The notes beneath the pieces were generated by a model that searched no databases, had not been told where the DNA came from, and was given only the letters and a program-made list of their open reading frames with translations. A stretch of DNA of 64,000 nucleotides from a phage: the NCBI GenBank assembly GCA_029742005.1, contig GCA_029742005.1_4113.1, one strand, 5' to 3'. Positions within the stretch are counted from its first letter, which is position 1, and the number at the start of each line of letters is the position of its first letter. Made by a program: the position numbers and the translations under genes. Positions 1,610-61,205 of this stretch are shown here, piece by piece.

Positions 1610-1680
1610 CCACCAGCACCGCCTAGAAACGATTCTAACGCATTAAACTGATTATCTGATGCATTGCCCTAGCTGGTGGC
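1610..1680 (+). repeat. inverted repeat GCCACCAGC / GCTGGTGGC carrying Chi octamers on both strands
   Basis: 9-bp arms about 50 nt apart; right arm contains GCTGGTGG at 1672-1679. Confidence 0.5.
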
Positions 1681-1744
1681 GTTAAGGCTGTAAGAACGCG
1701 ATTGAGAGCGTTTAAAGTATTTTGCAAAAAGTAATAAAAAGTAC

Positions 1745-1806
1745 TTGCACGATTAAGAGATTAGCGTATAATGTTTTACATCGAGAGGGGGAAACGGTTC
1801 TCCTTC
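1745..1806 (+). promoter_or_regulatory. early promoter plus 5' stem-loop (PeSL-like)
   Basis: TTGCAC 1745-1750, TATAAT 1767-1772, GGGGGAAACGGTTCTCC hairpin. Confidence 0.6.
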
Positions 1807-1827
1807 CAAATCAAAGGAATTAAAACA

Positions 1828-2055
1828 ATGGCTATCGTAATCACTCGCGTAACTGGTACTACTGGCAATTCTTCTACTGTTGCTGTAATTACTAATAAGA
1901 AAGGTGCGGAATTGCATTTTGCAATGGATAAATGGGCCGTTAATGAGTTCGGTCAGTGGGCAAGTGTAGCATACATTGAAACCTATCAAGTGCCGTCAAT
2001 TAGTTTAACTGATTTGGGCGTTGAGCGTATCCTTTGCCTGGATGAATTAAATTAA
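1828..2055 (+). CDS. hypothetical protein
   Basis: track ORF 1771..2055 starts inside the -10 box; start moved to ATG 1828 behind RBS AAAGGA. Confidence 0.65.
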   Translation: MAIVITRVTGTTGNSSTVAVITNKKGAELHFAMDKWAVNEFGQWASVAYIETYQVPSISLTDLGVERILCLDELN

Positions 2056-2063
2056 AAAAGTAC

Positions 2064-2122
2064 TTGCAAAGTAAATCAGATAAAGTATAATACATTACAT
2101 CAAGGGGAGAAATGGTTCTCCC
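2064..2122 (+). promoter_or_regulatory. early promoter plus 5' stem-loop (PeSL-like)
   Basis: TTGCAA 2064-2069, TATAAT 2086-2091, hairpin GGGGAGAAATGGTTCTCCC. Confidence 0.6.
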
Positions 2123-2141
2123 TGATAATGAGGAAACTAAT

Positions 2142-2285
2142 ATGAAAACTTGTCAATGTGGTAAAAAATCTATTACTGGTTTAAAGCGGGGCGTTGCACT
2201 TTGCCAGTACCATTATAATTTACAAGTATGGGGTAAAGAATGGGCCGACCAGGTGGAAGCAGCAAAGAAAGCAAAAAGTAAGTAA
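2142..2285 (+). CDS. small Cys-containing protein (47 aa)
   Basis: hand-called; RBS GAGGAA; translation MKTCQCGKKS..CQYHYN; below track cutoff. Confidence 0.45.
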   Translation: MKTCQCGKKSITGLKRGVALCQYHYNLQVWGKEWADQVEAAKKAKSK

Positions 2286-2304
2286 AAATATTATCACAGT
2301 ACTA

Positions 2305-2333
2305 TTGACATAGTTTGATAGTACTGGCATAAT
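2305..2333 (+). promoter_or_regulatory. class-2 promoter (AGTACT-flanked, no stem-loop)
   Basis: TTGACA 2305-2310, 17-nt spacer, CATAAT; same architecture at 5159 and 11379. Confidence 0.55.
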
Positions 2334-2366
2334 AGATTTTATCAAGACAACTAAGAGGAAATTAAA

Positions 2367-2711
2367 ATGGCTAATATCAACACTATCGCAAAACAAAATA
2401 TCAACCTGTCTTCTGTTGAAGTTGTACATATTGCCGCTCGGCGTTGGTTCCAGGCTTCATATGGTAACACTTATTTCTCTTTAAGTGTAGACGTAGAAAT
2501 TGATGGTAATTTTATTGAAGTAGTAAACGTGCCGTTCCAATATGGATACGGGGATCACTTTGACACTGTAGCAATGGAAGAATTTAGCAAGGTTATTAAT
2601 ATGGAAGATAAGGAGTTTACACGCGGAACGTACCTTTCACGTTTTTGCCGTGATAATAATATCACTGTTTATAGTTCTGTTAGTGATGTTAAACGCAAAA
2701 AAGATCTTTAA
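2367..2711 (+). CDS. hypothetical protein (paralog of 8255..8578)
   Basis: ORF track; RBS AAGAGGA; shares GNTY..Y..VKRKKD with 8255 ORF. Confidence 0.7.
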   Translation: MANINTIAKQNINLSSVEVVHIAARRWFQASYGNTYFSLSVDVEIDGNFIEVVNVPFQYGYGDHFDTVAMEEFSKVINMEDKEFTRGTYLSRFCRDNNITVYSSVSDVKRKKDL

Positions 2712-2791
2712 TTAGCTTTACTTTATGCAGATACTTTGATATAGTGTCTGCATAGGGGAAAGAAATTAAATTAACTTAAGAGGATAGTATA

Positions 2792-3061
2792 ATGAAAAAT
2801 ATCAGTACTTTAATCGATGCAGGTACACATGTTCGGCGGTCAATGGTTGCAACCAGTACTACAAAACAAGTAGCGAGCGGTTATCTTGTATTTGTGCACG
2901 ATGGTAAACTCCTGGAACGTTCAATCAATTTTGATGTTAAAAACAATTGCCGTTTTATTATCTTTCGCCGTGAACAATATAAGATCGACATTCCAGCGAA
3001 GCCCATTAGCGGGGCGTATAACGTCTATTCATTGTTTGAGCGTCAACCATACACCTATTAA
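2792..3061 (+). CDS. hypothetical protein
   Basis: ORF track; RBS AAGAGGA. Confidence 0.6.
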   Translation: MKNISTLIDAGTHVRRSMVATSTTKQVASGYLVFVHDGKLLERSINFDVKNNCRFIIFRREQYKIDIPAKPISGAYNVYSLFERQPYTY

Positions 3062-3112
3062 TCAAAACATCGTTAGCGGTTGATTTAGGCCGCTTATATT
3101 GAGGATTATACC

Positions 3113-3385
3113 ATGAACGTTAATCAAGTACTGAATGAGATCGAAAGCATCATTAAACCGATGAAGCGTACTGATGCTATGTTAACACCGGAAGAATGCC
3201 GCCTATATGAGCGTTATAGCGTCGAACAAGTCCAGGCAATGGCTATGGCTACCCCAGCCGTTAAACCGCCTGAGAATGCGTTACAGGACGTTACAGGGGA
3301 TTATATCATCAATCCAGTACTAGGGAAGATGGCTGCAATCACCGAAGATCAACAAGACTACTTAAGCCAGTACTTAAAAGGTTAA
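3113..3385 (+). CDS. hypothetical protein
   Basis: ORF track; RBS GAGGA. Confidence 0.65.
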   Translation: MNVNQVLNEIESIIKPMKRTDAMLTPEECRLYERYSVEQVQAMAMATPAVKPPENALQDVTGDYIINPVLGKMAAITEDQQDYLSQYLKG

Positions 3386-3390
3386 TTAAT

Positions 3391-3600
3391 ATGCTTACTG
3401 TACAGGATAAGATCGACATCTTAAAGGTTAATATGTATGTGATTGATGCCGTACCTGGTAAAGTATTTGCATACGATGATAGTACTGTAAGCGATTTCTA
3501 CTATAGCCAGGACGTGGGGGATCTTTCTGTACAGTCGGTTATTGAAAACGTAGTTAATGCAGCGTATGAGCATTTACTTTCAAATAGTACTTGCAATTAG
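3391..3600 (+). CDS. hypothetical protein
   Basis: ORF track; 3' end overlaps next promoter. Confidence 0.55.
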   Translation: MLTVQDKIDILKVNMYVIDAVPGKVFAYDDSTVSDFYYSQDVGDLSVQSVIENVVNAAYEHLLSNSTCN

Positions 3601-3650
3601 TTTTTAAACGCGTATAATGTTTTACATGAAGGGGAGAAATGATTCTCCCC
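3591..3650 (+). promoter_or_regulatory. early promoter plus 5' stem-loop (PeSL-like)
   Basis: TTGCAA, TATAAT 3613-3618, hairpin GGGGAGAAATGATTCTCCCC 3631-3650. Confidence 0.6.
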
Positions 3651-3669
3651 ACTAATTAAGGAATATGAA

Positions 3670-3816
3670 ATGAAAGCATCAAAAAAGAGTAATACCAAGA
3701 AAGCATGTTCACCTTTCGCTGGGGTATTCCCTTTACGTTTCGTTGATGAAGTAGTTTCCTACCCGCCGGGCCTTACTCCTGAGATGGTAGAAAGTTTGCG
3801 TAAATCTAAAAAATAG
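3670..3816 (+). CDS. small hypothetical protein (48 aa)
   Basis: hand-called; RBS AAGGAA; below track cutoff. Confidence 0.45.
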   Translation: MKASKKSNTKKACSPFAGVFPLRFVDEVVSYPPGLTPEMVESLRKSKK

Positions 3817-3819
3817 TAC

Positions 3820-3879
3820 TTGCAATTAGTTTTTAGTACTGTATAATAGTTTACATGAAGGGGAGAAATGGTTCTCCCC
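3820..3879 (+). promoter_or_regulatory. early promoter plus 5' stem-loop (PeSL-like)
   Basis: TTGCAA 3820-3825, TATAAT 3842-3847, hairpin GGGGAGAAATGGTTCTCCCC. Confidence 0.6.
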
Positions 3880-3897
3880 AATAACAGGAGAATCAAA

Positions 3898-4050
3898 ATG
3901 AAACAATACAACGCTCGGTTTGATGTTACTATCGGTAACGGCAAAGGTCAATTCTCTTTCAGTACTCGCAAAAGTTATACAGAAAACTTCCTGCGTAATT
4001 GTGCACTGACCGCCGCACAAATTAAACATTATTTTCAGGCTAAAAAATGA
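3898..4050 (+). CDS. small hypothetical protein (50 aa)
   Basis: track ORF 3868..4050 starts inside the stem-loop; start moved to ATG 3898 behind RBS AGGAG. Confidence 0.5.
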   Translation: MKQYNARFDVTIGNGKGQFSFSTRKSYTENFLRNCALTAAQIKHYFQAKK

Positions 4051-4136
4051 AAACATTAGCTTACTATAGTTCGGCCCTGGTCGGTGCATTGATCGCGGCG
4101 TTGTTAGTAACCTATCTATTCTTTATGGTGATTTAA
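4047..4136 (+). CDS. putative small hydrophobic peptide (29 aa)
   Basis: hand-called; ATGA overlap with upstream stop; single hydrophobic helix. Confidence 0.3.
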   Translation: MKTLAYYSSALVGALIAALLVTYLFFMVI

Positions 4137-4280
4137 ATGAATCCAACAGGTTTAAACTATAAAAGTTGTTCGGCGTTTACGAAAGCAAATAAAGCGAATG
4201 CACGTAAAGCGAAAGTACAGGAATACATCAAGCAAGGCATGACGCGAAAGGCGGCGATTCTAAAAGCTAAAAATAAATGA
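4137..4280 (+). CDS. small basic protein (47 aa)
   Basis: hand-called; TAAATG overlap; Lys-rich. Confidence 0.35.
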   Translation: MNPTGLNYKSCSAFTKANKANARKAKVQEYIKQGMTRKAAILKAKNK

Positions 4281-4470
4281 AAAAAGTGGTTGACTCCGGT
4301 CAGCCATTTTGCTATTATATATTCATTGAGAGATAGCTCACTAGCCCACAGGGTGCATAAGTGTATCTATTATATAAGTATTGAGTACTGAAAACTATTT
4401 TTAAAAAGTACTTGCAAACTATCTCAATTGGCGTATAATGTTTTACATCGCAAGGGGAAACGGTTTCCCC
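4281..4470 (+). repeat. intergenic cassette copy 1: hairpin, conserved core, early promoter, 5' stem-loop
   Basis: AAAAAG-TGGTTGACTCCGGTCAGCCA-TTTT hairpin; core AGCCCACAGGGTGCATAAGTGTATC; TTGCAA 4412-4417, TATAAT 4434-4439. Confidence 0.6.
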
Positions 4471-4490
4471 TGGTAATAAGGAAACGAATC

Positions 4491-4832
4491 ATGACTATCT
4501 CAATTGCTCAATCTAACTTTGAAAACGAAATCATCGCCCAGGCACTGCGTTTAAATGATGGTCGGGCCGAAATTAATTACGGTTTCAATTCAGGCGGTTG
4601 CGAAAAATATCAGTACTTTGTAACGGCTGATGGCGGTGTCCTGGGGATCAATACAGTTATTGTAAACATTCAGAAAATTAATTTCAATGATCCAGAAGAT
4701 AGCCAGTTTTACATCACGGGTGTGAACGTGAACTATGAGGATGATTATCTAACTGATGATCACACTGGCGAGAAGTTAGAAAGTGCATACGGTGAAGATG
4801 ATTATCAGTCCGGTCCAGAAGATTTTGAATAA
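4491..4832 (+). CDS. hypothetical protein (acidic C-terminus)
   Basis: track ORF 4428..4832 starts in the promoter; start moved to ATG 4491 behind RBS AAGGAA. Confidence 0.7.
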   Translation: MTISIAQSNFENEIIAQALRLNDGRAEINYGFNSGGCEKYQYFVTADGGVLGINTVIVNIQKINFNDPEDSQFYITGVNVNYEDDYLTDDHTGEKLESAYGEDDYQSGPEDFE

Positions 4833-4846
4833 TATTAAAAAATAGT

Positions 4847-4906
4847 TTGACAATAGATTATAGTACTGTATAATAAGTTACATCAAGGGGAGAAATGATT
4901 CTCCCC
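4847..4906 (+). promoter_or_regulatory. early promoter plus 5' stem-loop (PeSL-like)
   Basis: TTGACA 4847-4852, 17-nt spacer, TATAAT 4870-4875, hairpin GGGGAGAAATGATTCTCCCC. Confidence 0.65.
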
Positions 4907-4927
4907 CACTAACAAAGAGAAAACAAA

Positions 4928-5140
4928 ATGGCTAATATCTGCACTGTACTGAAAAATGCAAAACAAGTTTTATTTTCTGATCATGAAAATTTCAACAAGG
5001 ATATTACGGGCGTTCGGAATATCAAAGATGTAAAAAGTGTTATGGGTATCTATTGCAATATGAAACGTGTTGGTACGTTCGGCGACAAAGTACTATACCA
5101 GGCAGGGGATTATAACTTTACATTAACCATTATCAATTAA
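4928..5140 (+). CDS. hypothetical protein
   Basis: ORF track; RBS AAGAGA. Confidence 0.65.
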   Translation: MANICTVLKNAKQVLFSDHENFNKDITGVRNIKDVKSVMGIYCNMKRVGTFGDKVLYQAGDYNFTLTIIN

Positions 5141-5158
5141 AATATATTACCAGTACTA

Positions 5159-5187
5159 TTGACAATGATTGATAGTACTGGCATAAT
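5159..5187 (+). promoter_or_regulatory. class-2 promoter
   Basis: AGTACTATTGACA..GATAGTACTGGCATAAT. Confidence 0.55.
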
Positions 5188-5231
5188 AACTTTTATCAAC
5201 AGTAGTTAACTTAACAAAAGAGAGAAACAAA

Positions 5232-5375
5232 ATGATCGCACTAGATTCATTCATCGACGCAGTACTGGCAAAAACTGGCGAGGATCTGACCGCAGAACAA
5301 TACGCGATGATCGAACAATGTCAGCAAAACGGTAAATCGGTGAAAGATACTGTTAAGATTATCCGCAAGATGTAA
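5232..5375 (+). CDS. small hypothetical protein (47 aa)
   Basis: hand-called; RBS AAGAGAGA; followed by terminator. Confidence 0.5.
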   Translation: MIALDSFIDAVLAKTGEDLTAEQYAMIEQCQQNGKSVKDTVKIIRKM

Positions 5376-5380
5376 GATTA

Positions 5381-5410
5381 TAGCCCACTGGTTAACGCTG
5401 GTGGGCTATA
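5381..5410 (+). terminator. terminator-like hairpin containing a Chi octamer
   Basis: TAGCCCAC..GTGGGCTA stem; GCTGGTGG at 5397-5404; weak T-tract. Confidence 0.5.
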
Positions 5411-5677
5411 ATTCATTACCCTATACAATGCCAGTACTAAACCGTTTATCTCGTTAGAATGCGTTACAGGACGTTTGACAATGATTAGCATGAAATCAGT
5501 ACAAAAACAAATAGAAACATTATCAAAAATTAAACGTAAACAATACTCCTTAGAATATAATATCAATGGTAACTATCATCTAATGAAAGAAAATAATTTT
5601 ATAGTCATTGATGAATCATTGCAAATTATTAGTATAGTACTGAAAGCATTAATCAATGACAGAAAAAAGTTAAAATA

Positions 5678-5935
5678 ATGGCTGTAGGATTCGCGAAAGA
5701 CGGGGCCGAGCAAGACGAGATTAACGCAGTGATTCAGGCCGCCGTAAACCACGCTAGAAAGCAAATTAACGCACAAATAGAATCACTGATACATTGCCGC
5801 GACTGCGGCGATATAATCCCTGAGAAACGACGCCAGGCCGTTAAGGGATGTAAGTACTGCATAACTTGCCAGGAGGATCATGATAGTACTTTTAAACGTC
5901 CCCCGCGTAATTGTTGGCATAGATCTATGAGATAA
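5678..5935 (+). CDS. TraR/DksA-like C4 zinc-finger protein (putative)
   Basis: ORF track; CxxC..CxxC pattern (CRDC..CKYC) in a basic ~85-aa protein. Confidence 0.5.
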   Translation: MAVGFAKDGAEQDEINAVIQAAVNHARKQINAQIESLIHCRDCGDIIPEKRRQAVKGCKYCITCQEDHDSTFKRPPRNCWHRSMR

Positions 5936-5941
5936 AAAGTA

Positions 5942-5999
5942 TTGACAGTACTATCCAGTAGTGTTATAGTACTTACATCAAGGGGAAACATCTTCCCCT
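5942..5999 (+). promoter_or_regulatory. early promoter plus 5' stem-loop (PeSL-like)
   Basis: TTGACA 5942-5947, TATAGT, hairpin AGGGGAAACATCTTCCCCT. Confidence 0.55.
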
Positions 6000-6016
6000 A
6001 CTAAGAGGAAATGAAA

Positions 6017-6205
6017 ATGGAAAACTTATCAAGTATTTTAGTACAAGATGATTTCGGTAATCCTGGAAGTGCTATCATTGTTCGGGGTAATAAAGCAACA
6101 TTTGTTATTGCTGGTGGACCTGTACAGCGTAGCATTAAAAACAATGCCGTTACTATTAATAATGTACGCTATCGCTTAGATAAAGAATTGATTCATAAAC
6201 TGTAA
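6017..6205 (+). CDS. hypothetical protein
   Basis: ORF track frame; second ATG 6017 better spaced from RBS AAGAGGA. Confidence 0.6.
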   Translation: MENLSSILVQDDFGNPGSAIIVRGNKATFVIAGGPVQRSIKNNAVTINNVRYRLDKELIHKL

Positions 6206-6232
6206 TATTAATTTAATAGAGGATAACAATAA

Positions 6233-6556
6233 ATGTACATTCATACTACTATCACAAAGGAAGTCCGTTGCCAGTTCGAAAGTATTCCGGGCGTATGTTT
6301 CATCACTGGTACGTTTTCCCCTGGTGATCGTGATAATCCAGTACTGTTACAATTACGCCATCCATCATGGGATAAAGCATTTGATCTACCGTTGAATGAA
6401 TTCGCAACTACTGCTGAAAAGTACATTAAAAATATTCGCGAGAATGATCGACTATTCATTAATGCTTTTAGTGATTCCGCGTTAAGCGAGATCCACGGCG
6501 TATTGGTTGCAATCATGGAATCAATGGAGAAAACTAAATTCAAACAAGGTGAATAA
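6233..6556 (+). CDS. hypothetical protein
   Basis: ORF track; RBS AGAGGA. Confidence 0.65.
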   Translation: MYIHTTITKEVRCQFESIPGVCFITGTFSPGDRDNPVLLQLRHPSWDKAFDLPLNEFATTAEKYIKNIRENDRLFINAFSDSALSEIHGVLVAIMESMEKTKFKQGE

Positions 6557-6562
6557 AAACTA

Positions 6563-6622
6563 TTGACAATGTAATCTAGTACTGTATAATAAGTTACATG
6601 AAGGGGAGAAATGATTCTCCCC
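6563..6622 (+). promoter_or_regulatory. early promoter plus 5' stem-loop (PeSL-like)
   Basis: TTGACA, TATAAT 6585-6590, hairpin GGGGAGAAATGATTCTCCCC. Confidence 0.65.
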
Positions 6623-6639
6623 ACTGAGAGGAAAGAAAA

Positions 6640-6852
6640 ATGCAAGGTCAACTAATCGTTCGTAAATGGTCTGATACTAACGAAAAACCGTGGGATGTAC
6701 AATACATCGGACCGGACGGTGTTTCACGTTATCAACCTGGCGTAACGCATAGTACTGAGCAATATGCCGCCGCTCACCGCGAACGCCTGTTAGAATCCAT
6801 GAAACAGGGATTCTGTGAAAAATTCATTCAAGATCATTGGCTGAAAGATTAA
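6640..6852 (+). CDS. hypothetical protein
   Basis: ORF track; RBS GAGAGGAAAG. Confidence 0.65.
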   Translation: MQGQLIVRKWSDTNEKPWDVQYIGPDGVSRYQPGVTHSTEQYAAAHRERLLESMKQGFCEKFIQDHWLKD

Positions 6853-6869
6853 TATAAGGAGTACAGCTT

Positions 6870-6962
6870 ATGCAAATGAATCCGATGATTATTGTTTTAG
6901 CTGTACTTATGATCATTCATGCAATTGTAGAAGTATTAACGCAATCAGGAGTAATAAAATGA
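6870..6962 (+). CDS. putative small membrane peptide (30 aa)
   Basis: hand-called; RBS TAAGGAG; hydrophobic. Confidence 0.4.
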   Translation: MQMNPMIIVLAVLMIIHAIVEVLTQSGVIK

Positions 6963-7132
6963 TTCAAGTAGAATTATCAGTACTGAAAGATCTGTTTTAT
7001 CGGATTGGTACTACTGGCGAATATCCGAAGGGTGATAATGCAAAACTTTACGTATCACTCGACTTATGGCAACGCGAACAATTAGCAACAGCGTGGCGTA
7101 AAGGTAAAGCAGATCGCGAGGTGAAAGCATGA
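6959..7132 (+). CDS. small hypothetical protein (57 aa)
   Basis: hand-called; ATGA start/stop overlap. Confidence 0.45.
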   Translation: MIQVELSVLKDLFYRIGTTGEYPKGDNAKLYVSLDLWQREQLATAWRKGKADREVKA

Positions 7133-7278
7133 AAGAATTCTTATTCGAAGTAGTGTTCCAGGGCGTAGGAAGTAACCAACTGATTCGATCAAGTGGTTAC
7201 AATGTTAACCAGGCATGGAATAACATTAAACAAATGTACCCGAACGCTATCACCTATCGCAACCCAAAACAAGTTTAA
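7129..7278 (+). CDS. small hypothetical protein (49 aa)
   Basis: hand-called; ATGA overlap. Confidence 0.4.
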   Translation: MKEFLFEVVFQGVGSNQLIRSSGYNVNQAWNNIKQMYPNAITYRNPKQV

Positions 7279-7494
7279 AAAGAATTGAAAAAGGGATTGA
7301 CTCCGGTCAGTCCCTTTGCTATTATATATTCATTGAAACAATCTAGCCCACAGGGTGCATAAATGTATCTATTGTTTGCTGGTGGCTAGTACTATCAAGT
7401 ACTGAAAACTATTTTTAAAAAGTACTTGCAAAGTATCACGATAAGCGTATAATGTTTTACATCAGGACGGGGAACGAAACAAGTAACTCCCCGT
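7279..7494 (+). repeat. intergenic cassette copy 2
   Basis: GGGATTGACTCCGGTCAGTCCC hairpin, conserved core, Chi GCTGGTGG 7378-7385, TTGCAA/TATAAT 7447-7452, stem-loop ACGGGGA..TCCCCGT. Confidence 0.6.
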
Positions 7495-7543
7495 TAAGTA
7501 GTCCAGGAGTAAGACATACGAAAACCTCCCCTGATAAAATAGT

Positions 7544-7571
7544 TTGACAATAGAAATTAAACGAGTATAAT
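7544..7571 (+). promoter_or_regulatory. sigma70-like promoter
   Basis: TTGACA 7544-7549, 16-nt spacer, TATAAT 7566-7571. Confidence 0.6.
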
Positions 7572-7601
7572 ACTTACATCAACCACAAAGAGGAATACAA
7601 A

Positions 7602-7802
7602 ATGAAACATTTTACTTTCGGTGTAGTAGGCTTTACAGTATCCAGCGGCGTTTATAAATCAGAACGCGGTGCTAAAAATGCAGCAAGTCGGGCGTATGGT
7701 TCACAGCGTGACTTACAGGTCGGTTATATTAGTAACATTAATAACATGTTTATTCCTGTTTCACAGCGTAAAGCGGGTAACATGAAATGGGAAACAATTT
7801 GA
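7602..7802 (+). CDS. hypothetical protein
   Basis: ORF track; RBS AAGAGGAA. Confidence 0.65.
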   Translation: MKHFTFGVVGFTVSSGVYKSERGAKNAASRAYGSQRDLQVGYISNINNMFIPVSQRKAGNMKWETI

Positions 7803-7811
7803 TAAAATAGT

Positions 7812-7870
7812 TTGACAATAGTTTTTAGTACTGTATAATAGTTTACATCAAGTGGGGAATAGTTCCCCAC
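7812..7870 (+). promoter_or_regulatory. early promoter plus 5' stem-loop (PeSL-like)
   Basis: TTGACA 7812-7817, TATAAT, hairpin GTGGGGAATAGTTCCCCAC. Confidence 0.65.
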
Positions 7871-7891
7871 CTAACAAAGAGAGAAATTAAA

Positions 7892-8167
7892 ATGCGGATT
7901 CTACTGACAGCTAACGAAATCGAGCAAGTACTGACTACTAACCTGGAAGACTGGAAACGTGATGCAGATATCCAGGCGGTTCAATGCCTTAACGATAAGT
8001 TAACGCCAGATGACTTAAGCACGATTGTTGATCCACAATTTTATGAAGATATTCACGACATGGATTTAAGCGTAGAGGATGTACTTGATAAGCACTACAT
8101 TGATACTGATTTACAGGTTTACGGTCGTAAAAACTTTATCACTATTCACGACATTTACAATACTTAA
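7892..8167 (+). CDS. hypothetical protein (acidic)
   Basis: ORF track; RBS AAGAGAGA. Confidence 0.7.
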   Translation: MRILLTANEIEQVLTTNLEDWKRDADIQAVQCLNDKLTPDDLSTIVDPQFYEDIHDMDLSVEDVLDKHYIDTDLQVYGRKNFITIHDIYNT

Positions 8168-8170
8168 GTA

Positions 8171-8231
8171 TTGACAAAGTATCTTAGTACTGTATAATAG
8201 TTTACATCAAGTGAGGGGAATGGTTCCCCTC
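8171..8231 (+). promoter_or_regulatory. early promoter plus 5' stem-loop (PeSL-like)
   Basis: TTGACA 8171-8176, TATAAT 8193-8198, hairpin GAGGGGAATGGTTCCCCTC. Confidence 0.65.
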
Positions 8232-8254
8232 CTAACAAAAAGAGAGAAATTAAA

Positions 8255-54481: not shown

Positions 54482-54510
54482 TAGCCCGACATAAGTTCGG
54501 GCTATTTTTG
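54482..54510 (+). terminator. rho-independent terminator
   Basis: TAGCCCGA..TCGGGCTA hairpin then T5. Confidence 0.7.
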
Positions 54511-54521
54511 TAAGGGGATAT

Positions 54522-54797
54522 ATGAATTATAAAGTTCTACAATATACATACAGTGTTTTGTTTGATTTACATCACAATGGAAGATATCTCAATACAATAC
54601 GAGAAAACACATTCACTCATACTATCTGGATTAATCACTTAATAATGATACGTGAATATTTTGTTAATAGTGAGATAATCATTCGTGGTAAAAAACAGAA
54701 GATAGAACAAGTTAATAGTTTTGGTGGTAAATTAGTACTATCATTTATAGATAGTAATACTAATGAAAGATATAGTATAGATTTGGTGGACATATGA
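54522..54797 (+). CDS. fam3 small protein
   Basis: ORF track; N-terminal LQYTYSVLFDL signature. Confidence 0.55.
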   Translation: MNYKVLQYTYSVLFDLHHNGRYLNTIRENTFTHTIWINHLIMIREYFVNSEIIIRGKKQKIEQVNSFGGKLVLSFIDSNTNERYSIDLVDI

Positions 54798-55059
54798 ATT
54801 ATAAAGATTTCCTACTAACATACAAGATTATTCGAGATTTAGCACACGACAATGATAGCCCTAGTCTAGAAGACACATGCACTGAAATGATTCATACGAT
54901 TCGTGGTAAGATTAAAAAAAATTCAGTACTGTTATTATTGGTGATGACCATGCAGAATTTTCTGATATAATCATTAGACGTGATGGTAAAGTTGAGGTTC
55001 AGTACTACACTGATTTTGGATTTACCAGTATTCCGTTGGAGATATTCCCTTGGGATTAA
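54794..55059 (+). pseudogene. fam3 copy disrupted by a frameshift at an A8 run
   Basis: ATG 54794 opens a fam3-like frame that stops after about 58 codons; the rest continues in another frame across an A8 homopolymer near 54919. Confidence 0.4.
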
Positions 55060-55361
55060 ATTTAAATGATATACAATTCACTTATAAGATCCTATATGAT
55101 TTGTATGATTTATACCTTGTTAGTAACAAAATAGGTTCACATAACTCATCCAAAGAACAACCATTTATTGATTTATATATTGAGTACTTAGATTCAGTAG
55201 GTGAATATATAAAAAAGAATTACAGTACTTTTAACGATGGAAATGATATATTCGAGTTCTCTGGAGTTAAATCATACAATGGGATTATCCATGTTGAATT
55301 TCTTGAAATAACCGATAGGGGATTTATCGAGATTAAAGTTGTGAAGTTGGTGAATTTATAA
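55050..55361 (+). CDS. fam3 small protein (TTG start per track)
   Basis: ORF track with non-ATG start; signature LNDIQFTYKILYDLYDLY. Confidence 0.5.
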   Translation: MGLNLNDIQFTYKILYDLYDLYLVSNKIGSHNSSKEQPFIDLYIEYLDSVGEYIKKNYSTFNDGNDIFEFSGVKSYNGIIHVEFLEITDRGFIEIKVVKLVNL

Positions 55362-55371
55362 GAGGTTACAT

Positions 55372-55683
55372 ATGTTATTAAATGATATACAATTCACATA
55401 CAAATTTTTGTATATCCAATACGCTACGGTTGATGCTGGAGAATATCTCTACGGTGAAATCTATCGTTCGGTATGGATAAAGTTTTTGGATGAATTACAT
55501 GAATATTACCATGATTTGTGTATAGTTCGTGATAATAAAATATACAAATTCCTCGATATTGTTAGTCATAGCGGTAAGCTACGATTGGAATTAAGTACTG
55601 ATAGTGATGTTGATTGGATTGGTGTAAATTTACTGGAGTTGGAGAATGAAAAACAACTTAAAGGAAATACAAGTATTTTATAA
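55372..55683 (+). CDS. fam3 small protein
   Basis: ORF track; RBS AGAGG; signature LNDIQFTYKFLYIQY. Confidence 0.6.
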   Translation: MLLNDIQFTYKFLYIQYATVDAGEYLYGEIYRSVWIKFLDELHEYYHDLCIVRDNKIYKFLDIVSHSGKLRLELSTDSDVDWIGVNLLELENEKQLKGNTSIL

Positions 55684-55930
55684 ATTCTTATACTTGTCAT
55701 ATGTAAAAGATGAGTACTATGAAAGTGTGTATTATTTTTTATGGCAACATTACCGTACTATAGTAAGAGATTTATATATAGGAAAATCTATCATATCCAA
55801 TGGTGAAAAATGTATATGTACTGATGTTGTTAGTTTTAATGGTTCGTTAACACTGTGTTTCAGATGCGATAATAATAGTGGGTCATTTTCATTAAACGTA
55901 TATCAGTTAGAAGGAATAAATTTTGAATAA
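55646..55930 (+). CDS. fam3 small protein
   Basis: ORF track; signature EIQVFYKFLYLSY. Confidence 0.55.
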   Translation: MKNNLKEIQVFYKFLYLSYVKDEYYESVYYFLWQHYRTIVRDLYIGKSIISNGEKCICTDVVSFNGSLTLCFRCDNNSGSFSLNVYQLEGINFE

Positions 55931-56123
55931 ATGTCCATATTGTAACAGTACTCAATTAGCTCGTTTCCGTTTAGATTCAGACTGGGCGACTGGTGCTGGT
56001 GATTTCTTCCCTATTAATGATGATGCGGAATACACCGAAGAACAGCACAAAGATTTTGATAAATCATGGCGACCTGACATTGAGTGCATTTATTGCCTTA
56101 ATTGTGAGCGTGTTCATGACTAA
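55923..56123 (+). CDS. small zinc-ribbon protein
   Basis: ORF track; CPYC..CIYCLNC (two CxxC pairs). Confidence 0.55.
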   Translation: MNKCPYCNSTQLARFRLDSDWATGAGDFFPINDDAEYTEEQHKDFDKSWRPDIECIYCLNCERVHD

Positions 56124-56379
56124 AGCTGAACTAATAGTTCATACATATAAAATGATATCAAGTACTAAGTTATCATATAGTGAAGATAATCCAGTACTGG
56201 ATTATTTTGTTGAATTATTGAAAGAGCATTATATTGGTAAATCACTGATTCTTAATAATATTAATTTCACGGTAAAGGATGTAGCACCTGGAAAAAACGT
56301 ACTAATAGTATGTGTTACTTCATCTGATAACCCAGTATACCCAATATCAATAATTTTTGAGATATTAGGAGATTTATGA
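56116..56379 (+). CDS. fam3-like small protein
   Basis: track frame 55993..56379 overlaps upstream gene; start moved to ATG 56116. Confidence 0.5.
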   Translation: MTKAELIVHTYKMISSTKLSYSEDNPVLDYFVELLKEHYIGKSLILNNINFTVKDVAPGKNVLIVCVTSSDNPVYPISIIFEILGDL

Positions 56380-56666
56380 ATATCATTTTAATGCAGAAAA
56401 CATATGCTATATTGGTGAAAGATTATTCCATTACTTTCGATTCACAAGAAAGTGCTCTACATAACCTATACAAAAACGTAACACAAGAATACAGAAATAT
56501 GTTTTCTGACTTAGTAGTAGGAAGGTATTTCAGTACTAGAAAATACCCAAAACTTCAAATAGTTGATGTTTCTTTTTATTTCAATGGTCATATTACTATT
56601 CATACTTTAGACCAAGATTCAACAACGTACTTAAACTTTTCATTTGATGAGGTAACATTTTTATGA
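56376..56666 (+). CDS. fam3 small protein
   Basis: ORF track; signature MQKTYAILVKDY. Confidence 0.55.
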   Translation: MNIILMQKTYAILVKDYSITFDSQESALHNLYKNVTQEYRNMFSDLVVGRYFSTRKYPKLQIVDVSFYFNGHITIHTLDQDSTTYLNFSFDEVTFL

Positions 56667-56839
56667 GAGCAGTATTTTTTATCTGGAGTCTTTTTTCATT
56701 GGCAGTACTGACAGTATGTGGGATTTGTTTCCTTTCATCAATTAATACTTGGTATATCAATTTACTATTTCCATTTGTCTGTGTTGGTTTAGGGTTTACT
56801 TTGCATAGTGTATGTAAGGATTACAATGAGAACAAATGA
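56663..56839 (+). CDS. putative small membrane protein (58 aa)
   Basis: hand-called; ATGA overlap; two hydrophobic segments. Confidence 0.4.
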   Translation: MRAVFFIWSLFSLAVLTVCGICFLSSINTWYINLLFPFVCVGLGFTLHSVCKDYNENK

Positions 56840-57104
56840 AGTACTTATTGCTGAAACAATGAAGATGATTTACAATATCACGTCAGCACAGAATATGCCC
56901 TATCCAACTAAGTCTTTATTGAGGACTGTGTATCTGGGGATAGTACAGGAGTACTACAAATCCAAGCACCGAAGCATTATTAGTGTTTATCGTGATTATG
57001 AAAGGATTCGTATTTTATTCTGGAACAAGAATCGAGTACGTTCTGAATGTGACCTAGTGGACTTTAAATTAGAGAATCTTTATTGCTATAAACAGGGACA
57101 ATAG
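56826..57104 (+). CDS. fam3-like small protein
   Basis: track frame 56808..57104 (GTG); start moved to ATG 56826. Confidence 0.5.
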   Translation: MRTNEVLIAETMKMIYNITSAQNMPYPTKSLLRTVYLGIVQEYYKSKHRSIISVYRDYERIRILFWNKNRVRSECDLVDFKLENLYCYKQGQ

Positions 57105-57162
57105 TTTAATTCATGATATAATAATGGGTAAGGAACAATAATTAACACAAGGAGTGTGTGAA

Positions 57163-57891
57163 ATGCTTGACCGTATCCGTTTCGCTACAGAGATGGCGAA
57201 TGAATTAAACATGGCAAATTTCCAAATGTTAACATCAGTAATGGCTGAACATGCATGTGCTTATTCTGTAAGTGGTGTGCAGTGTGGTCAGGAGAATATG
57301 TTAGCAGATGTTTATAGTGAAGTGCAAAGTAAGCAATATAGTGTAAAGACATATAAGGATAAGTTTGTTAGTCTTTATATGAACGAAGATATTGCCGAAG
57401 ACCGTAAATTCACTGATTTTATTATTGAACGCCGAGTATCAGGTGTATCTAATCCTAATGCATCAAGCGAGGAAGTTTTTGCAGAAGTACTGAAAGATAT
57501 ATACGAAAATGAATTAAAAAGTAAGAATCATTACAATGTACGTGAAACTAACACAGTGCTCTTGGGATATGATGAAGACGAAGAATACTATTATTTTCGT
57601 ATGACTGAAGTTCCTTTTGAATACAAATCTCCATATACAACTACAGTGAAAGAATTTACTGAAAAAAGTAAAAACTTCATGAAGCATGAAGGAAATCGTT
57701 GTAGTATAAATGGTTACGACGAAAATGGCATTCACATTTATGAGTGGGTTCACCCAAATTGTCAGACATACACTCGTTGCTTGAAAAAACGTTATAATTT
57801 AGAAGAGCATGAATCATTCTATTTTAAAGTTAAGAAGCAAGGTTACACTCGCCCCGCCGATTCTGAATTGATGGGTATGATATATTTCTAA
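57163..57891 (+). CDS. hypothetical protein (242 aa)
   Basis: track frame 57154..57891; start moved to ATG 57163 behind RBS AAGGAG; TGATATAAT promoter-like box about 45 nt upstream. Confidence 0.6.
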   Translation: MLDRIRFATEMANELNMANFQMLTSVMAEHACAYSVSGVQCGQENMLADVYSEVQSKQYSVKTYKDKFVSLYMNEDIAEDRKFTDFIIERRVSGVSNPNASSEEVFAEVLKDIYENELKSKNHYNVRETNTVLLGYDEDEEYYYFRMTEVPFEYKSPYTTTVKEFTEKSKNFMKHEGNRCSINGYDENGIHIYEWVHPNCQTYTRCLKKRYNLEEHESFYFKVKKQGYTRPADSELMGMIYF

Positions 57892-57901
57892 GGAAACTTC
57901 T

Positions 57902-58183
57902 ATGGATTTTTATCTACACACATGGACATACGAACAATATATTACATTATATCTTGAAATTATTAACACAGAACCTAGGTGTGGTTGTTGGTTCGCAGAT
58001 ATCATAAAAGAGTATGCTGACGAGTTCGAGTTTGTGTATCTTGGGTCTGATATATTTGTAAAAAGTGTAGGTAAAACCGGACGAATCACTGATATAGATT
58101 ACGACACTGTTAGTGTGAATTTCTATGTTGATTTTCCTGATGCTGGAGTTGATGGTGTATATTGTCTTTATGAAATAATTTAA
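57902..58183 (+). CDS. hypothetical protein
   Basis: ORF track. Confidence 0.55.
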   Translation: MDFYLHTWTYEQYITLYLEIINTEPRCGCWFADIIKEYADEFEFVYLGSDIFVKSVGKTGRITDIDYDTVSVNFYVDFPDAGVDGVYCLYEII

Positions 58184-58189
58184 ATTCTT

Positions 58190-58216
58190 AGGCCAGCGTT
58201 TGCTGGTCTTTTTTCG
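58190..58216 (+). terminator. rho-independent terminator
   Basis: AGGCCAGC..GCTGGTCT hairpin then T6. Confidence 0.7.
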
Positions 58217-58227
58217 CAGGTACAAAG

Positions 58228-58530
58228 ATGTTCAGTATAGATTTAATTAACAGTACTATCAAAATGTTGGCTGATTTGGTGAGACAATCCAATGGAACTT
58301 TATATCCATCAATGTATAAAATGTTTGACCGATACATCAAGGATTGTAACATATCATTATATGGACTTACTGTTGATATAGACGATTACTATGGAATTAA
58401 TACTTCATATAAAACAGGAATTTTAATTGGTATTAATATAAAGATGGGGTATTTCCCTTATTACTGTATAGGATTACCAGATAATACTTTGGTAGAATAT
58501 CCAGCCAGTACTATTAAATTAAGAGGATAA
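58228..58530 (+). CDS. hypothetical protein
   Basis: ORF track. Confidence 0.55.
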   Translation: MFSIDLINSTIKMLADLVRQSNGTLYPSMYKMFDRYIKDCNISLYGLTVDIDDYYGINTSYKTGILIGINIKMGYFPYYCIGLPDNTLVEYPASTIKLRG

Positions 58531-58537
58531 AACTAAA

Positions 58538-59116
58538 ATGAATGTATTAGAATTAAGTACTAAGCTGATTAGTATGCGTAATGAGTGGTACGATTGGTTT
58601 TATAATGGTACTGATATGAATTTTTCAAAATATCCATTTATGGAATCAGGATGTGATTCAAGATACCGCTGGTTGAGCAAAAGTGATTCTGGTTTACATA
58701 TTAGAATCGATGATAGTGGTCGAGGAATTATACACGATTTACTTCAAGTTGATCAATTCGTCCATGACAATTGGTGTGATAACGATCCATACCTTGGAAA
58801 TATGATTTATATAAGTGAAGATGATTGCGTATTCGTTATCCAGCGACATGGTAATTCTATGTTTTATGTAGCAGACAGCAGTACACCAGAAGGTGCAGCA
58901 GCCGATGGACTTATGCCTAAAATTGATATATTGGAATTTGGATTACCTGAGCACTTCCAGATTAGTACTTTATACGATATTCCACCACTTGAGTTCTTTG
59001 AAGAATTTAAATTGTACTTCAATGATCTTCAAAAATTGAGTACTGATAGACGCATTGAAATAACTGTTAAGTACATGGACGGAACGAAATTAACCGATAC
59101 GGGGATAGAATTTTGA
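58538..59116 (+). CDS. fam2-like protein
   Basis: ORF track; motif LPEHFQISTLYD. Confidence 0.55.
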   Translation: MNVLELSTKLISMRNEWYDWFYNGTDMNFSKYPFMESGCDSRYRWLSKSDSGLHIRIDDSGRGIIHDLLQVDQFVHDNWCDNDPYLGNMIYISEDDCVFVIQRHGNSMFYVADSSTPEGAAADGLMPKIDILEFGLPEHFQISTLYDIPPLEFFEEFKLYFNDLQKLSTDRRIEITVKYMDGTKLTDTGIEF

Positions 59117-59802
59117 TTAAAGATTTAGATAGAATTTTATATGTACTAAGGGGTGTAATTACATTACATCCACAAATCAATCGAATTGAAAGTACATTTC
59201 AGTTGGAGTCAAGAGAAACTCCATATTCACATATATCAAATGTAGTTGGTTCACTCAGTACTGAAGACTCGTCTTACGATATTTGTGTATGTGAAGTACA
59301 ACCAAGTTCGGATCTTGGATTTGCTATTTTTGATAAAAATCAAAATCTCATTAGTATGTTTCAGTGCAATAATCCTTTTTGGAAAACATGCCTGTATCCA
59401 GAGTGGGCTATGCTTGATCCAACCAAGAGTACCATTAAAGTTTATGACTCTAAAAATGATGAAGTCGTTATTGATTTGGATGAGTCAATGTCAGAGGAAG
59501 AACACTTTCAGCTAATGATGATGCGTGCTATGCCTGAATACAATGCAATGATTAACACAGTGCAATACATTAAGGATACCATGCCATCGTTGCGTACACA
59601 TGAGTTTTGTCATCCGGTATTGTATGAACATCTAGATTTAGACTTCAGTACTATTAAATTTAAAGATAGTGTTATTAGATATATCCAAGAAGTTACTAAA
59701 TTTAATTTCATTAGTACAATGAATAATAACCCTGAAACAAATTTCAGACGACAATATAATGAATCTTTGTCTAATGGACGTGATACCAGTTGGTGGAAAT
59801 AA
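59113..59802 (+). CDS. fam2-like protein
   Basis: ORF track; motif EEEHFQLMMMRA. Confidence 0.55.
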   Translation: MIKDLDRILYVLRGVITLHPQINRIESTFQLESRETPYSHISNVVGSLSTEDSSYDICVCEVQPSSDLGFAIFDKNQNLISMFQCNNPFWKTCLYPEWAMLDPTKSTIKVYDSKNDEVVIDLDESMSEEEHFQLMMMRAMPEYNAMINTVQYIKDTMPSLRTHEFCHPVLYEHLDLDFSTIKFKDSVIRYIQEVTKFNFISTMNNNPETNFRRQYNESLSNGRDTSWWK

Positions 59803-59803
59803 T

Positions 59804-59956
59804 ATGAATATCCAAGATAGATTACAATTACTGTACACACTTGAACAGGCTGCTTATGAACTTGTTCGAAAAATCTCTGAAGAACTCCCTAAAGGAACTA
59901 AAGTTCGTGTACGTGAGATGAATTATTTTTCTGGAAAATTGAAGAACAAGTACTAA
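59804..59956 (+). CDS. small hypothetical protein (50 aa)
   Basis: track frame 59759..59956; start moved to ATG 59804 (TAATATG junction). Confidence 0.4.
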   Translation: MNIQDRLQLLYTLEQAAYELVRKISEELPKGTKVRVREMNYFSGKLKNKY

Positions 59957-60062
59957 CAGTGAATAAAGTAACATACTATGAATCTGAGTTGTCTATTCAG
60001 TGTGAATCAGATGATGGATTAATATCATATTATGGGACTGATATAGACATAGAGGTAATAAA

Positions 60063-61205
60063 ATGACCCTTTTGCAAATATATGAAGATTTAATGCACTT
60101 ATGTAATACAAACGATGCATTCTTTTATGTGGATCATAAAAGTCCTGCTGGTGGCACGTATCGTGTATTCAGTTATCGTCTAGCATCATACACTGATTTC
60201 ATGCAACCAAATGCGTTGGAAACCCGTGGCTCTATGTGGGAAATTGATGAAGAAGGTGAAATGATACGTTGTGCAGCACGTACAATGAAAAAGTTCTTCA
60301 ATGCTTACGAGAATCCTGCTACAATGTTCCCTGCTAACACCACATGCGATGACATTGCGGTAGTGATGCCTAAGTTGGATGGTTCGATTATCAGTACTTA
60401 CCGTGATAATGATGGTGAGATTCGTTGTAAATCACATACTGCATTGTATTCTGACCATGCGATTAATAGTACTCGACTTATTAACGAGAACCAGAATTTG
60501 TATCAGTACATCGACGAAGCGGAACGTTTAGGTTACACAGTTAATATGGAGTATACAAGCCCAGAGTACCGAATTGTATTACCATATCAGGTAGAACAAC
60601 TGTTTGTACTGAACGTTCGTCATCGTGTGAGTGGTGAGTTGCTATGTGGTAAAGCACTACGTGATAAGTTTCCATGTCTTGCACAGTACAGTACTAATAT
60701 GACTGGAAAAGATATTCATCACACTTTTCCGGTACGAAATACCTTCCGTGAAAGCGTGGAGGAAGTTCATAAAATGCTTGATATTGAGGGTTTTGTGTGC
60801 ATCCTAAATAATGGGACAATGTGTAAAATAAAGACTGACTGGTACAGTTCATTACATCTTACAAAAGATAGTATTATTATTGATTCTCATTTATATGAAG
60901 CAGTATTAAATGGTTCAAGTGATGATTTAAAACAATTGTTCAGTACTGATGAATATGCTATGCAAAAGATATTAAGAATGGAACAATTGGTATTTTCGTG
61001 CTATAATGCATTACAAGATGAAGTAGAAAGCTTCGTCAAGGAACACAAGCACTTGGAGCGAAAGGAATTCGCAATGAAGGTTCAGGAGTGTTTAACTAAT
61101 GAACTGAATCGTCAGGGCTTGGCCTTTGCAATGTATAACAATAAGAAAGTTGATTACAAAGAGACTCTTATAAAATACATGAAAATTGTACTAAAGGATT
61201 TTTAG
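60063..61205 (+). CDS. rnlA: RNA ligase 1 (T4 RnlA-like)
   Basis: ORF track; RBS GAGG; KxDG adenylation motif (PKLDGS); YRVFSY, EKFFN..ENP, KIKTDWY..LH..K and SDDLK blocks match recalled T4 RnlA in order; T4-like length 380 aa. Confidence 0.8.
   Translation: MTLLQIYEDLMHLCNTNDAFFYVDHKSPAGGTYRVFSYRLASYTDFMQPNALETRGSMWEIDEEGEMIRCAARTMKKFFNAYENPATMFPANTTCDDIAVVMPKLDGSIISTYRDNDGEIRCKSHTALYSDHAINSTRLINENQNLYQYIDEAERLGYTVNMEYTSPEYRIVLPYQVEQLFVLNVRHRVSGELLCGKALRDKFPCLAQYSTNMTGKDIHHTFPVRNTFRESVEEVHKMLDIEGFVCILNNGTMCKIKTDWYSSLHLTKDSIIIDSHLYEAVLNGSSDDLKQLFSTDEYAMQKILRMEQLVFSCYNALQDEVESFVKEHKHLERKEFAMKVQECLTNELNRQGLAFAMYNNKKVDYKETLIKYMKIVLKDF

Follow-up and report, generated by a model that had tools for sequence, protein, structure and literature searches.

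The element described here is a cluster of Chi octamers in a 64,000-nucleotide stretch of phage DNA (contig GCA_029742005.1_4113.1 of the NCBI GenBank assembly GCA_029742005.1), referred to below as the window. The exact Chi sequence 5'-GCTGGTGG-3', given as the Chi of enteric bacteria in PMC13181404, is present in 10 copies, 8 on the plus strand and 2 on the minus strand, and 8 of these 10 are located within 1610-12120, the inner two-thirds of a long direct terminal repeat (DTR). The repeat holds Chi at about 100 times the density expected by chance. On balance, the cluster is probably made up of host Chi sites that selection maintains as an array in the long DTR of a Rak2-like jumbo phage (Asteriusvirus), where it would act in cis by converting RecBCD from a nuclease into a RecA loader. 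This functional reading is based on the localisation to the DTR, the conservation and orientation of the sites, their recurrence across genera and the published precedents of phages P1 and LLS.

The source phage is an Asteriusvirus jumbo coliphage of the 121Q/PBECO4/G17/phAPEC6 group, as indicated by the 98-99% identity of window 50000-63216 to several records. The rnlA protein shows 100% identity to its counterpart in phage SHEFM2K, and the closest database records to the window are E. coli phages. The first 14 kb are mosaic, the best match showing 93% coverage and 92% identity. By homology to phages fEgEco12 and vB_Ec-M-J, positions 1-13473 (plus strand) represent the inner 13.5 kb or so of a DTR of about 21 kb, window position 1 lying about 6.7 kb into the repeat, and the plus strand of the window is the plus strand of the relatives' records. 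The DTR of fEgEco12 is 20,993 bp as determined by PhageTerm and restriction digests (PMC13070987). Its right boundary maps to window position ~13,473, with the boundary motif CTAAAGGGCGGGTAA at 13456-13470, and thus all eight clustered Chi are inside the DTR. The record of vB_Ec-M-J carries an annotated 'Direct Terminal Repeats' feature at 1-21525 (21,525 bp) that covers the homologous stretch, and for G17 a terminal redundancy of about 20 kb was seen by coverage. Up to about 13.4 kb the window is made up of small early genes standing singly, all on the plus strand, each with a near-consensus sigma-70-type promoter and often a terminator; 14 plus-strand promoter matches with scores of 11-12 out of 12 were found in the DTR part. 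Past this point the genes are close-packed and overlapping. The GC content is 0.38-0.39 in the DTR part versus 0.31-0.33 in the remaining window.

The plus-strand Chi are located at 1672, 5397, 6110, 7378, 9761, 11891, 12113 and 60147, and the minus-strand Chi at 1610 and 51508. A preliminary description of the window, made from the sequence letters, had given seven of these positions, all of them correct and including the site at 60147 that is read S-P-A-G-G in frame within rnlA, but it had missed the plus-strand sites 6110, 9761 and 11891. Its estimate that well under one copy is expected by chance is borne out by dinucleotide shuffles (n=100), which gave a mean of 0.23 and a maximum of 2 Chi, none reaching the observed 10. 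The excess is, however, not spread over 1610-60154 as had been proposed. Within window 1-13500, 7 plus-strand and 1 minus-strand Chi were counted against 0.07-0.28 (plus) and 0.04-0.09 (minus) expected from the composition of this segment under Markov models of order 0-4, while 13501-64000 contained 1 on each strand against about 0.15-0.32 (plus) and 0.07-0.12 (minus). The two distal sites show no significant excess by themselves, and the excess is therefore a cluster within 1610-12120. Chi is the third most over-represented octamer of window 1-13500 under the Markov-3 model, only repeated promoter and terminator words ranking higher. The coincidence of this cluster with the terminal repeat, which is the key to its interpretation, was absent from the preliminary description.

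The whole genome of the relative EC22.5-2 (351,992 bp) was assembled. Its 28 Chi include 11 (9 plus, 2 minus) in the 21-kb DTR equivalent, which makes up 6% of the genome and for which 0.24-0.39 are expected. Within this segment Chi ranks 2-23 among about 11,600 octamers, at 28-45 times expectation, and is first among 168 composition-matched permutations (11 copies, against 4 for the next best and a mean of 0.4). The remaining 331 kb contain 17 Chi versus 2.2 expected under Markov-1 or 8.6-9.8 under Markov-3/4, an excess of only 1.7-2 times under the latter models, and permuted words are as common there, GGTGCTGG with 22 copies and GGTGGTGC with 18. A genome-wide excess was accordingly rejected, Chi being no commoner outside the DTR than permuted octamers; when counted against background and matched words, the excess first described for the octamer thus holds in the DTR and fails across the genome. 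The annotated DTR of vB_Ec-M-J has 11 Chi, and the 8.5 kb that follow it have none. The density in the DTR is about 1 per 1.7-1.9 kb at 38% GC, versus 1 per 4.6 kb in E. coli, and equals that of P1 and LLS. In six genomes, each DTR has 7-10 exact plus-strand Chi, whereas the 24 one-mismatch variants add up to 2-6.

The Chi excess is not driven by codon usage, because 7 of the 11 Chi in the DTR of vB_Ec-M-J fall outside coding sequence, in a repeat of which 65% is coding (p = 0.05), and because the coding sites are read in different frames (A-G-G at 6110 and 11891, T-L-V-E at 9761). In the window, the 8 plus-strand sites are divided equally between intergenic (1672, 5397, 7378, 12113) and coding positions (6110, 9761, 11891, 60147), so that the initial characterisation of the sites as mostly in intergenic hairpins and cassettes is half right. 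Only the site at 5397 lies in a terminator stem, it is the only Chi-bearing one of many DTR terminators, and beyond the inverted pairs described below the remaining sites are without a convincing hairpin; an origin of Chi as a by-product of hairpins was rejected on this ground. The spacing of Chi to promoters and terminators is irregular. The flanking contexts of the 8 cluster sites are unrelated except for the inverted pair 1610/1672 and for the repeat element shared by 7378 and 12113. Two cassette copies do carry Chi, as noted at the outset, at only roughly the same relative position, the alignment positions being different.

Orthologous Chi sites common to eight Asteriusvirus genomes were compared (the window, vB_Ec-M-J, EC22.5-2, fEgEco12, TH47, G17, phAPEC6 and 121Q). 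Eight of 9 plus-strand octamers are invariant in all 6-8 genomes having the locus, while 5-34% of the flanking columns vary; this invariance is significant against the invariant 8-column windows of the same alignments (P = 0.003). The exceptions are the plus site 11891 and the minus site 1610. Among the intergenic sites, that at 1672-1679 follows a terminator (1564-1585) and precedes the next promoter; it is unchanged in 8 of 8 genomes, while about 29% of the columns around it vary. The site at 5397-5404, also invariant in all eight, extends over the loop and the 3' arm of a terminator hairpin at 5378-5412 (TATAGCCCACTGG-TTAA-CGCTGGTGGGCTATA, dG -25.7 kcal/mol). The sites at 7378-7385 and 12113-12120, in copies 2 and 4 of an intergenic repeat of about 130 bp, are again invariant in 8 of 8 genomes in spite of changes at their very edges: at 7378, substitutions directly 5' of the octamer and, 2 bases 3' of it, an indel of 10 bp; at 12113, a 12-bp indel one base 3' of the octamer. 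As for the coding sites, 6110-6117 (GCT GGT GGA, A-G-G) lies in the open reading frame (ORF) 6011-6205, with its orthologue inside EcMJ_031, and is unchanged in 8 of 8 genomes while about 30% of the columns around it vary; 9761-9768 (acG CTG GTG Gaa, T-L-V-E), with its orthologue inside EcMJ_041, is likewise invariant in 8 of 8; and 11891-11898 (ORF 11783-11983, A-G-G) is present in 6 of 7 genomes, the segment of 121Q being replaced and divergent there.

Both Asteriusvirus minus-strand sites are halves of inverted pairs with a plus-strand site. One pair, CCACCAGC-nnnn-GCTGGTGG, is located about 590 bp from the left end. The other is 1610/1672, for which a 9-bp stem, GCCACCAGC/GCTGGTGGC, is predicted around 52 nucleotides; its left arm, the minus-strand Chi at 1610-1617, is active for rightward-moving RecBCD and is intact in 6 of 8 relatives, being mutated in 121Q and G17. 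The left-end pair is a perfect inverted repeat of Chi, and its 4-nucleotide loop is found in both orientations, as ACAA in vB_Ec-M-J (588-607) and as TTGT in five others (e.g. 578-597). Such a loop inversion is the signature of hairpin or cruciform loop flipping.

Chi is recognised only by RecBCD approaching from the 3' side of GCTGGTGG (PMC12315714; bioRxiv 10.1101/2021.07.08.451572), and therefore RecBCD from the right end would meet the plus array and RecBCD from the left end two minus sites. In the frame of fEgEco12, with experimentally verified termini, the Chi face the DNA ends, the plus sites toward the right and the minus sites toward the left: ten plus-strand Chi are located 1.4, 1.6, 3.2, 5.1, 7.4, 8.7, 9.6, 10.1, 14.3 and 20.4 kb from the right terminus, and two minus-strand Chi 0.6 and 6.6 kb from the left terminus. 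The site at 12113, about 1.35 kb from the right DTR boundary, is the first Chi for RecBCD entering the right genome end, and the distance of the last plus Chi to the right terminus is 1.35-1.43 kb in the window, fEgEco12 and CBB (1.35 kb in the window, 1.43 kb in CBB). Strand totals in four lineages are 31 plus and 5 minus (p = 6e-6 against 0.5; p = 0.006 against the composition-expected 0.66). The strand bias is directed toward the right terminus; it is in part what composition predicts, and exceeds it. If RecBCD recognises each Chi with a probability of about 0.3, the figure generally given for this enzyme, ten sites would stop about 97% of the enzymes that enter at the right end, and two sites would stop about half of those that enter at the left.

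The array, confined to the DTR or cassette region and biased toward the plus strand, recurs in other genera. In RaK2 (Klebsiella), 8 plus and 1 minus Chi lie within a 14-kb cassette region, with 10 in the 44.5 kb analysed versus 0.30 expected. The clusters of GAP32 (Cronobacter) and of the Erwinia phage pEa_SNUABM_50 consist of 7 plus and 2 minus and of 6 plus and 0 minus sites, respectively. In CBB (Pectobacterium), the annotated repeat of 22,456 bp holds 7 plus and 2 minus, and the following 27.5 kb hold 3. In XaC1 (Xanthomonas), 9 plus and 3 minus are all within the 32,031-bp DTR, with none in the following 13 kb. By comparison of the flanks, nearly all of the roughly 45 Chi positions are non-homologous between genera, 11 of the 12 in XaC1 being lineage-specific, indicating that the array is kept by turnover and not inherited site by site. 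In an unbiased scan for plus-strand octamers over-represented in all of four DTRs, three motif families emerged, namely words with AGTACT, Chi, and the core of the intergenic repeat.

From these observations, modulation of RecBCD degradation or recombination by the Chi sites, as suggested in the preliminary description, is the best-supported reading. RecBCD loading on the right end, toward which transcription of the DTR runs, would meet 9-10 correctly oriented plus-strand Chi, the first about 1.4 kb in, while RecBCD loading on the left end would meet the two minus-strand Chi about 0.6 and 6.6 kb in. At a DTR Chi, destruction of the 3' strand by RecBCD would be attenuated and RecA loaded on the 3' tail inside the repeat. 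The RecA-coated tail would have a homologous partner in the DTR copy at the opposite end, whether of the same genome or of a sister genome. The unique DNA would be spared, and strand invasion between the two DTR copies would be favoured, leading to circular or concatemeric forms and supplying a 3' primer that points into unique DNA for recombination-dependent replication. No phage protein would be needed for this mechanism, and hence it could operate on the incoming molecule at a stage when none has yet been made. The same model has been put forward for the terminally redundant ends of P1 and for LLS-type lambdoids. Circularisation mediated by the DTR was proposed independently by the authors of the fEgEco12 study (PMC13070987). 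In the literature searched for Chi together with jumbo phage, Asteriusvirus, Rak2-like or terminal repeats, the work on P1 and LLS was found and no description of a Rak2-like Chi array; a search for plating data of Asteriusvirus on rec mutants gave none.

Several points weigh against this proposal. We infer the second copy of window 1-13473 at the other genome end from the relatives. The annotation of fEgEco12 includes a T4-like recombination set, gp46/47-like SbcCD, RecA/UvsX-like and UvsY-like, listed as a recombination endonuclease subunit, an SbcC-like protein, the RecA-like Gp372 and the recombination/single-stranded DNA-binding Gp373 (PMC13070987), and the lack of any Rec module that defines the LLS and P1 classes therefore does not apply. 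The strand bias comes in part from G-rich coding strands, for which about 2:1 is expected, and outside the DTR the minus-strand Chi in the analysed region of vB_Ec-M-J lie in minus-strand genes. The left end has only two active Chi. An end-binding protein or a base modification could block RecBCD at the ends of virion DNA. In a scan of 30 DTR ORFs against PHROGs, no RecBCD inhibitor or end-protection gene was recognised, which is weak evidence as nearly all are of unknown function, the only other assignments being a DksA-like zinc finger and a weak match to a 'DNA ligase' family; 'End protect' is absent from the annotation table of fEgEco12. In the long-DTR coliphage T5, the first 50 kb hold only 2 Chi, not a significant number, and thus a DTR alone does not predict Chi. 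Finally, the same DTR-specific array is present in XaC1, reported only on Xanthomonas vesicatoria (65% GC, non-enteric), and the XaC1 DTR contains none of the Pseudomonas-type GCTGGCGC against 12 GCTGGTGG. XaC1 had been taken as a negative control for host specificity and was rejected as such, as it unexpectedly has the array; the control is therefore non-discriminating and counts against a simple reading of the octamer as host Chi. Either GCTGGTGG is also read by the RecBCD of Xanthomonas, or the association of XaC1 with this host is recent or incomplete, or a phage factor is the reader.

The last of these possibilities can be generalised: the octamer may be read by a phage-encoded factor, as a signal for DTR binding, nicking, packaging or injection, and only coincide with host Chi. 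We regard this as unlikely. The strand-specific nick sites and the injection stop signal of T5 are analogues of such a phage-read signal. The presence of the array throughout the clade, including XaC1 with its non-enteric host and with 11 of its 12 sites lineage-specific, agrees with a phage reader, and the strict limit to the DTR together with the strand bias fits a cis signal for end-related processes. AGTACT is another clade word enriched in the DTR, so that phage-specific motifs exist here, and the phage has no obvious need for host recombination. However, an exact match to the 8-nucleotide Chi would then be a coincidence with odds of 1 in 65,536, and the hosts known for this clade are nearly all Enterobacterales. 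The irregular spacing to promoters and terminators and the location of half of the sites in genes, in different frames, are unlike an architectural signal, and the free turnover of positions is as expected if only number and orientation matter. Furthermore, no candidate reader was found among the 30 DTR ORFs.

A second alternative retains RecBCD as the reader but assigns the array to protection instead of recombination. Chi would halt the degradation of the first-entering DNA and starve RecBCD-dependent processes, CRISPR spacer acquisition for example, without a RecBCD inhibitor protein that could set off abortive-infection systems guarding RecBCD. This appears comparably unlikely. It draws on the same statistical evidence as the recombination reading, and a recombination benefit is less obvious because the phage has its own recombinase set. 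Levy et al. (2015) reportedly found that Chi limits the acquisition of spacers derived from RecBCD activity, and the retron Ec48 is said to guard RecBCD (Millman et al., 2020). The lack of a recognisable RecBCD inhibitor among the 30 early ORFs also favours protection, but absent PHROG matches are weak evidence for DTR proteins of nearly all unknown function. Protection of the whole genome predicts equally armoured ends, against the count of about 10 versus 2, and Subramaniam and Smith (bioRxiv 10.1101/2021.07.08.451572) hold that degradation in vivo is not simply turned off by Chi, whose effects require RecA. The protection and recombination roles through RecBCD cannot be separated by sequence data.

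That the cluster has no function, being a by-product of local base composition or codon usage, of GC-rich stems in terminators, of duplicated elements between genes or of genes taken up from the host, is very improbable and largely refuted by the computations: the DTR has a higher GC content than the rest of the window, the terminator stem TAGCCCAC...GTGGGCTA supplies GGTGG and terminator words such as TAGCCCAC are over-represented, and the site at 5397 overlaps a terminator arm while 7378 and 12113 are in a repeat family, but the DTR's own composition up to order 4 expects 0.1-0.4 Chi, the matched permutations (mean 0.4, maximum 4) stay far below 11, the cluster contexts are mutually unrelated save for the two pairs named above and a single terminator has Chi, the exact octamer is commoner than its one-mismatch neighbours and conserved amid drifting flanks, and about 45 non-homologous sites recur across five lineages at a density above that of E. 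coli.

Returning to the host Chi array, a broader and more speculative proposal, rather doubtful as it stands, can be made for the clade as a whole (Asteriusvirus, RaK2, GAP32/CBB, Eneladusvirus, XaC1). These phages may keep a one-directional DTR array of about 10 Chi by site turnover, as a protein-free device that tames RecBCD entering at the ends and channels it, before expression, to the invasion between DTR copies that starts concatemer replication, without inhibition of RecBCD; or, given XaC1, a phage factor may mimic or co-opt Chi recognition. Since RecBCD would not be inhibited, the array would escape defences that guard RecBCD. If this is true, the clade-wide array would break the published rule that Chi-rich phages are those without their own recombination module. 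The matter bears on how long-DTR jumbo genomes circularise or form concatemers, on the nuclease-exposed end and on cis-acting Chi as an alternative to protein inhibitors of RecBCD. The phages fEgEco12, UE-S1, Sharanji and phAPEC6 are in development for therapy, so that the recBCD status of the host or RecBCD-linked defences could affect efficacy.

Isolated Chi are also found outside the DTR. The minus-strand site at 51508-51515 has its orthologue in vB_Ec-M-J (position 59,909 of the record) between annotated genes, and the plus-strand site at 60147-60154 is inside the rnlA ORF 60063-61205, in frame as GCT GGT GGC. Three minus-strand Chi are located in an array of 14 tandem minus-strand paralogues of an RCC1-like protein ('regulator of chromosome condensation'), just upstream of the right DTR (vB_Ec-M-J 337.8-338.8 kb; EC22.5-2 9277-9790). 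In the analysed regions of GAP32, CBB and the Erwinia phage, a minus-strand Chi lies at an orthologous position in a gene for a Dam-type N6-adenine methyltransferase (36633, 33818 and 31278, respectively), where it is probably just a conserved codon string (P-P-A).

The DTR contains other repeated elements. Four plus-strand copies of the intergenic repeat of about 130 bp are located at 4283-4420, 7290-7430, 10594-10730 and 11998-12150, each composed of a hairpin, AAAGGGATTGAC-TCCG-GTCAGTCCCTTT, followed by GCTATTATAT, then CTAGCCCACAGGGTGCATAA and a variable tail. The hairpin has a 12-bp stem and is also readable as TTGACT-N17-TATTAT. Only the copies at 7290 and 11998 carry Chi, at different alignment columns, and an origin of Chi as a by-product of the repeat was rejected on this ground. 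The core words CCCACAGG and CAGGGTGC are over-represented, with 3-4 copies in the DTRs of all four genera tested. A scan of window 1-14000 against Rfam gave no match; the repeat may be a small RNA or a regulatory site.

The palindrome AGTACT (a ScaI site) is present 86 times in the DTR part of the window against about 4 expected, or 6.4 per kb, and at 2.4-2.7 per kb, about 8 times expectation, outside the DTR. The DTRs of four genera contain 129-145 copies per about 20 kb and that of XaC1 241, while T5 has 10 in 50 kb. The palindrome is found in promoters, coding DNA and spacers, and the top shared DTR octamers are CAGTACTG and AGTACTTG (part of the -35 region 'AGTACTTGCA'). A literature search found no description of this over-representation; a binding site and a modification site are candidate roles. 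Downstream of nearly all early promoters stand 'TTACATCA/TACATGA' and, just before the ribosome-binding site, a conserved hairpin in the 5' untranslated region, GGGGAGAAATGRTTCTCCCC (e.g. 3630-3650, 3858-3880, 4885-4907 and 6600-6622); the arrangement looks like a leader structure shared by the DTR cassettes. Within window 1-8000, single cassette genes show 70-80% DNA identity to unrelated coliphages of about 145-155 kb (Phapecoctavirus/phAPEC8-like, muut, ukendt) and to 'Campylobacter phage' records, the labels of which look doubtful. This pattern suggests that promoter-gene-terminator cassettes move between phage groups.

Among known systems, T5 resembles the Rak2-like phages in its long exact DTR (10.2 kb) with the first-expressed genes, and PhageTerm assigns Rak2-like termini to the class 'long ends type T5'. 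The 2 Chi of T5 in the first 50 kb are both in the repeat. As this number is not significant, T5 was rejected as a positive comparator and serves as a negative control. T5 counters host nucleases with pre-early proteins. The E. coli chromosome shares with the jumbo DTR the identical octamer and a strand bias co-oriented with the G-rich, mostly coding strand. The Chi of E. coli are, however, near-uniform, 13 times denser in ORFs and explicable by codon usage (bioRxiv 10.1101/2021.07.08.451572), whereas those of the jumbo phage are localised to 6% of the genome, mostly intergenic and denser than in the host.

Closer parallels are found among phages with Chi arrays near their ends, described for temperate P1-like and for lambdoid phages and explained there by absent phage recombination genes, P1- and LLS-type phages being Chi-rich because they are without a recombination module (PMC12315714; bioRxiv 10.1101/2021.07.08.451572). 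LLS has 23 Chi clustered at its right end, 1 per 1.86 kb, with 20 of the 23 in active orientation (Zheng et al. 2025, PMC12315714). The LLS-class lambdoids are thus like the jumbo phage in one-end clustering, active orientation (9-10 of 11-12 here) and density. As a difference, LLS has cos ends and is without a DTR, a recombination module or a RecBCD inhibitor, and its growth was shown to be enhanced by RecBCD (PMC12315714). P1 carries 50 Chi, which are dense close to its terminally redundant ends, and its circularisation requires RecA and RecBCD (bioRxiv 10.1101/2021.07.08.451572). Like the jumbo phage, P1 and its relatives P7 and D6 have Chi at a density above that of E. coli (about 1 per 1.9 kb in P1), concentrated at packaged ends or terminal repeats (bioRxiv 10.1101/2021.07.08.451572); many of them are non-coding, and RecBCD/RecA recombination between the terminal repeats of the injected linear DNA has been proposed. 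In contrast, P1 is temperate, with variable headful redundancy, Chi on both strands and a need for host RecA and RecBCD, while the jumbo phage is virulent, 350 kb in size, with a fixed and exact early-gene DTR of about 21 kb, a pronounced bias to one strand, and UvsX-like and gp46/47-like genes of its own. The same signature in lytic 350-kb phages with recombinases, in at least five lineages, extends the phenomenon to a very different biology; what is unusual here is its presence in a virulent jumbo phage with its own recombinases, within a fixed DTR of 21-32 kb, and its clade-wide conservation by turnover.

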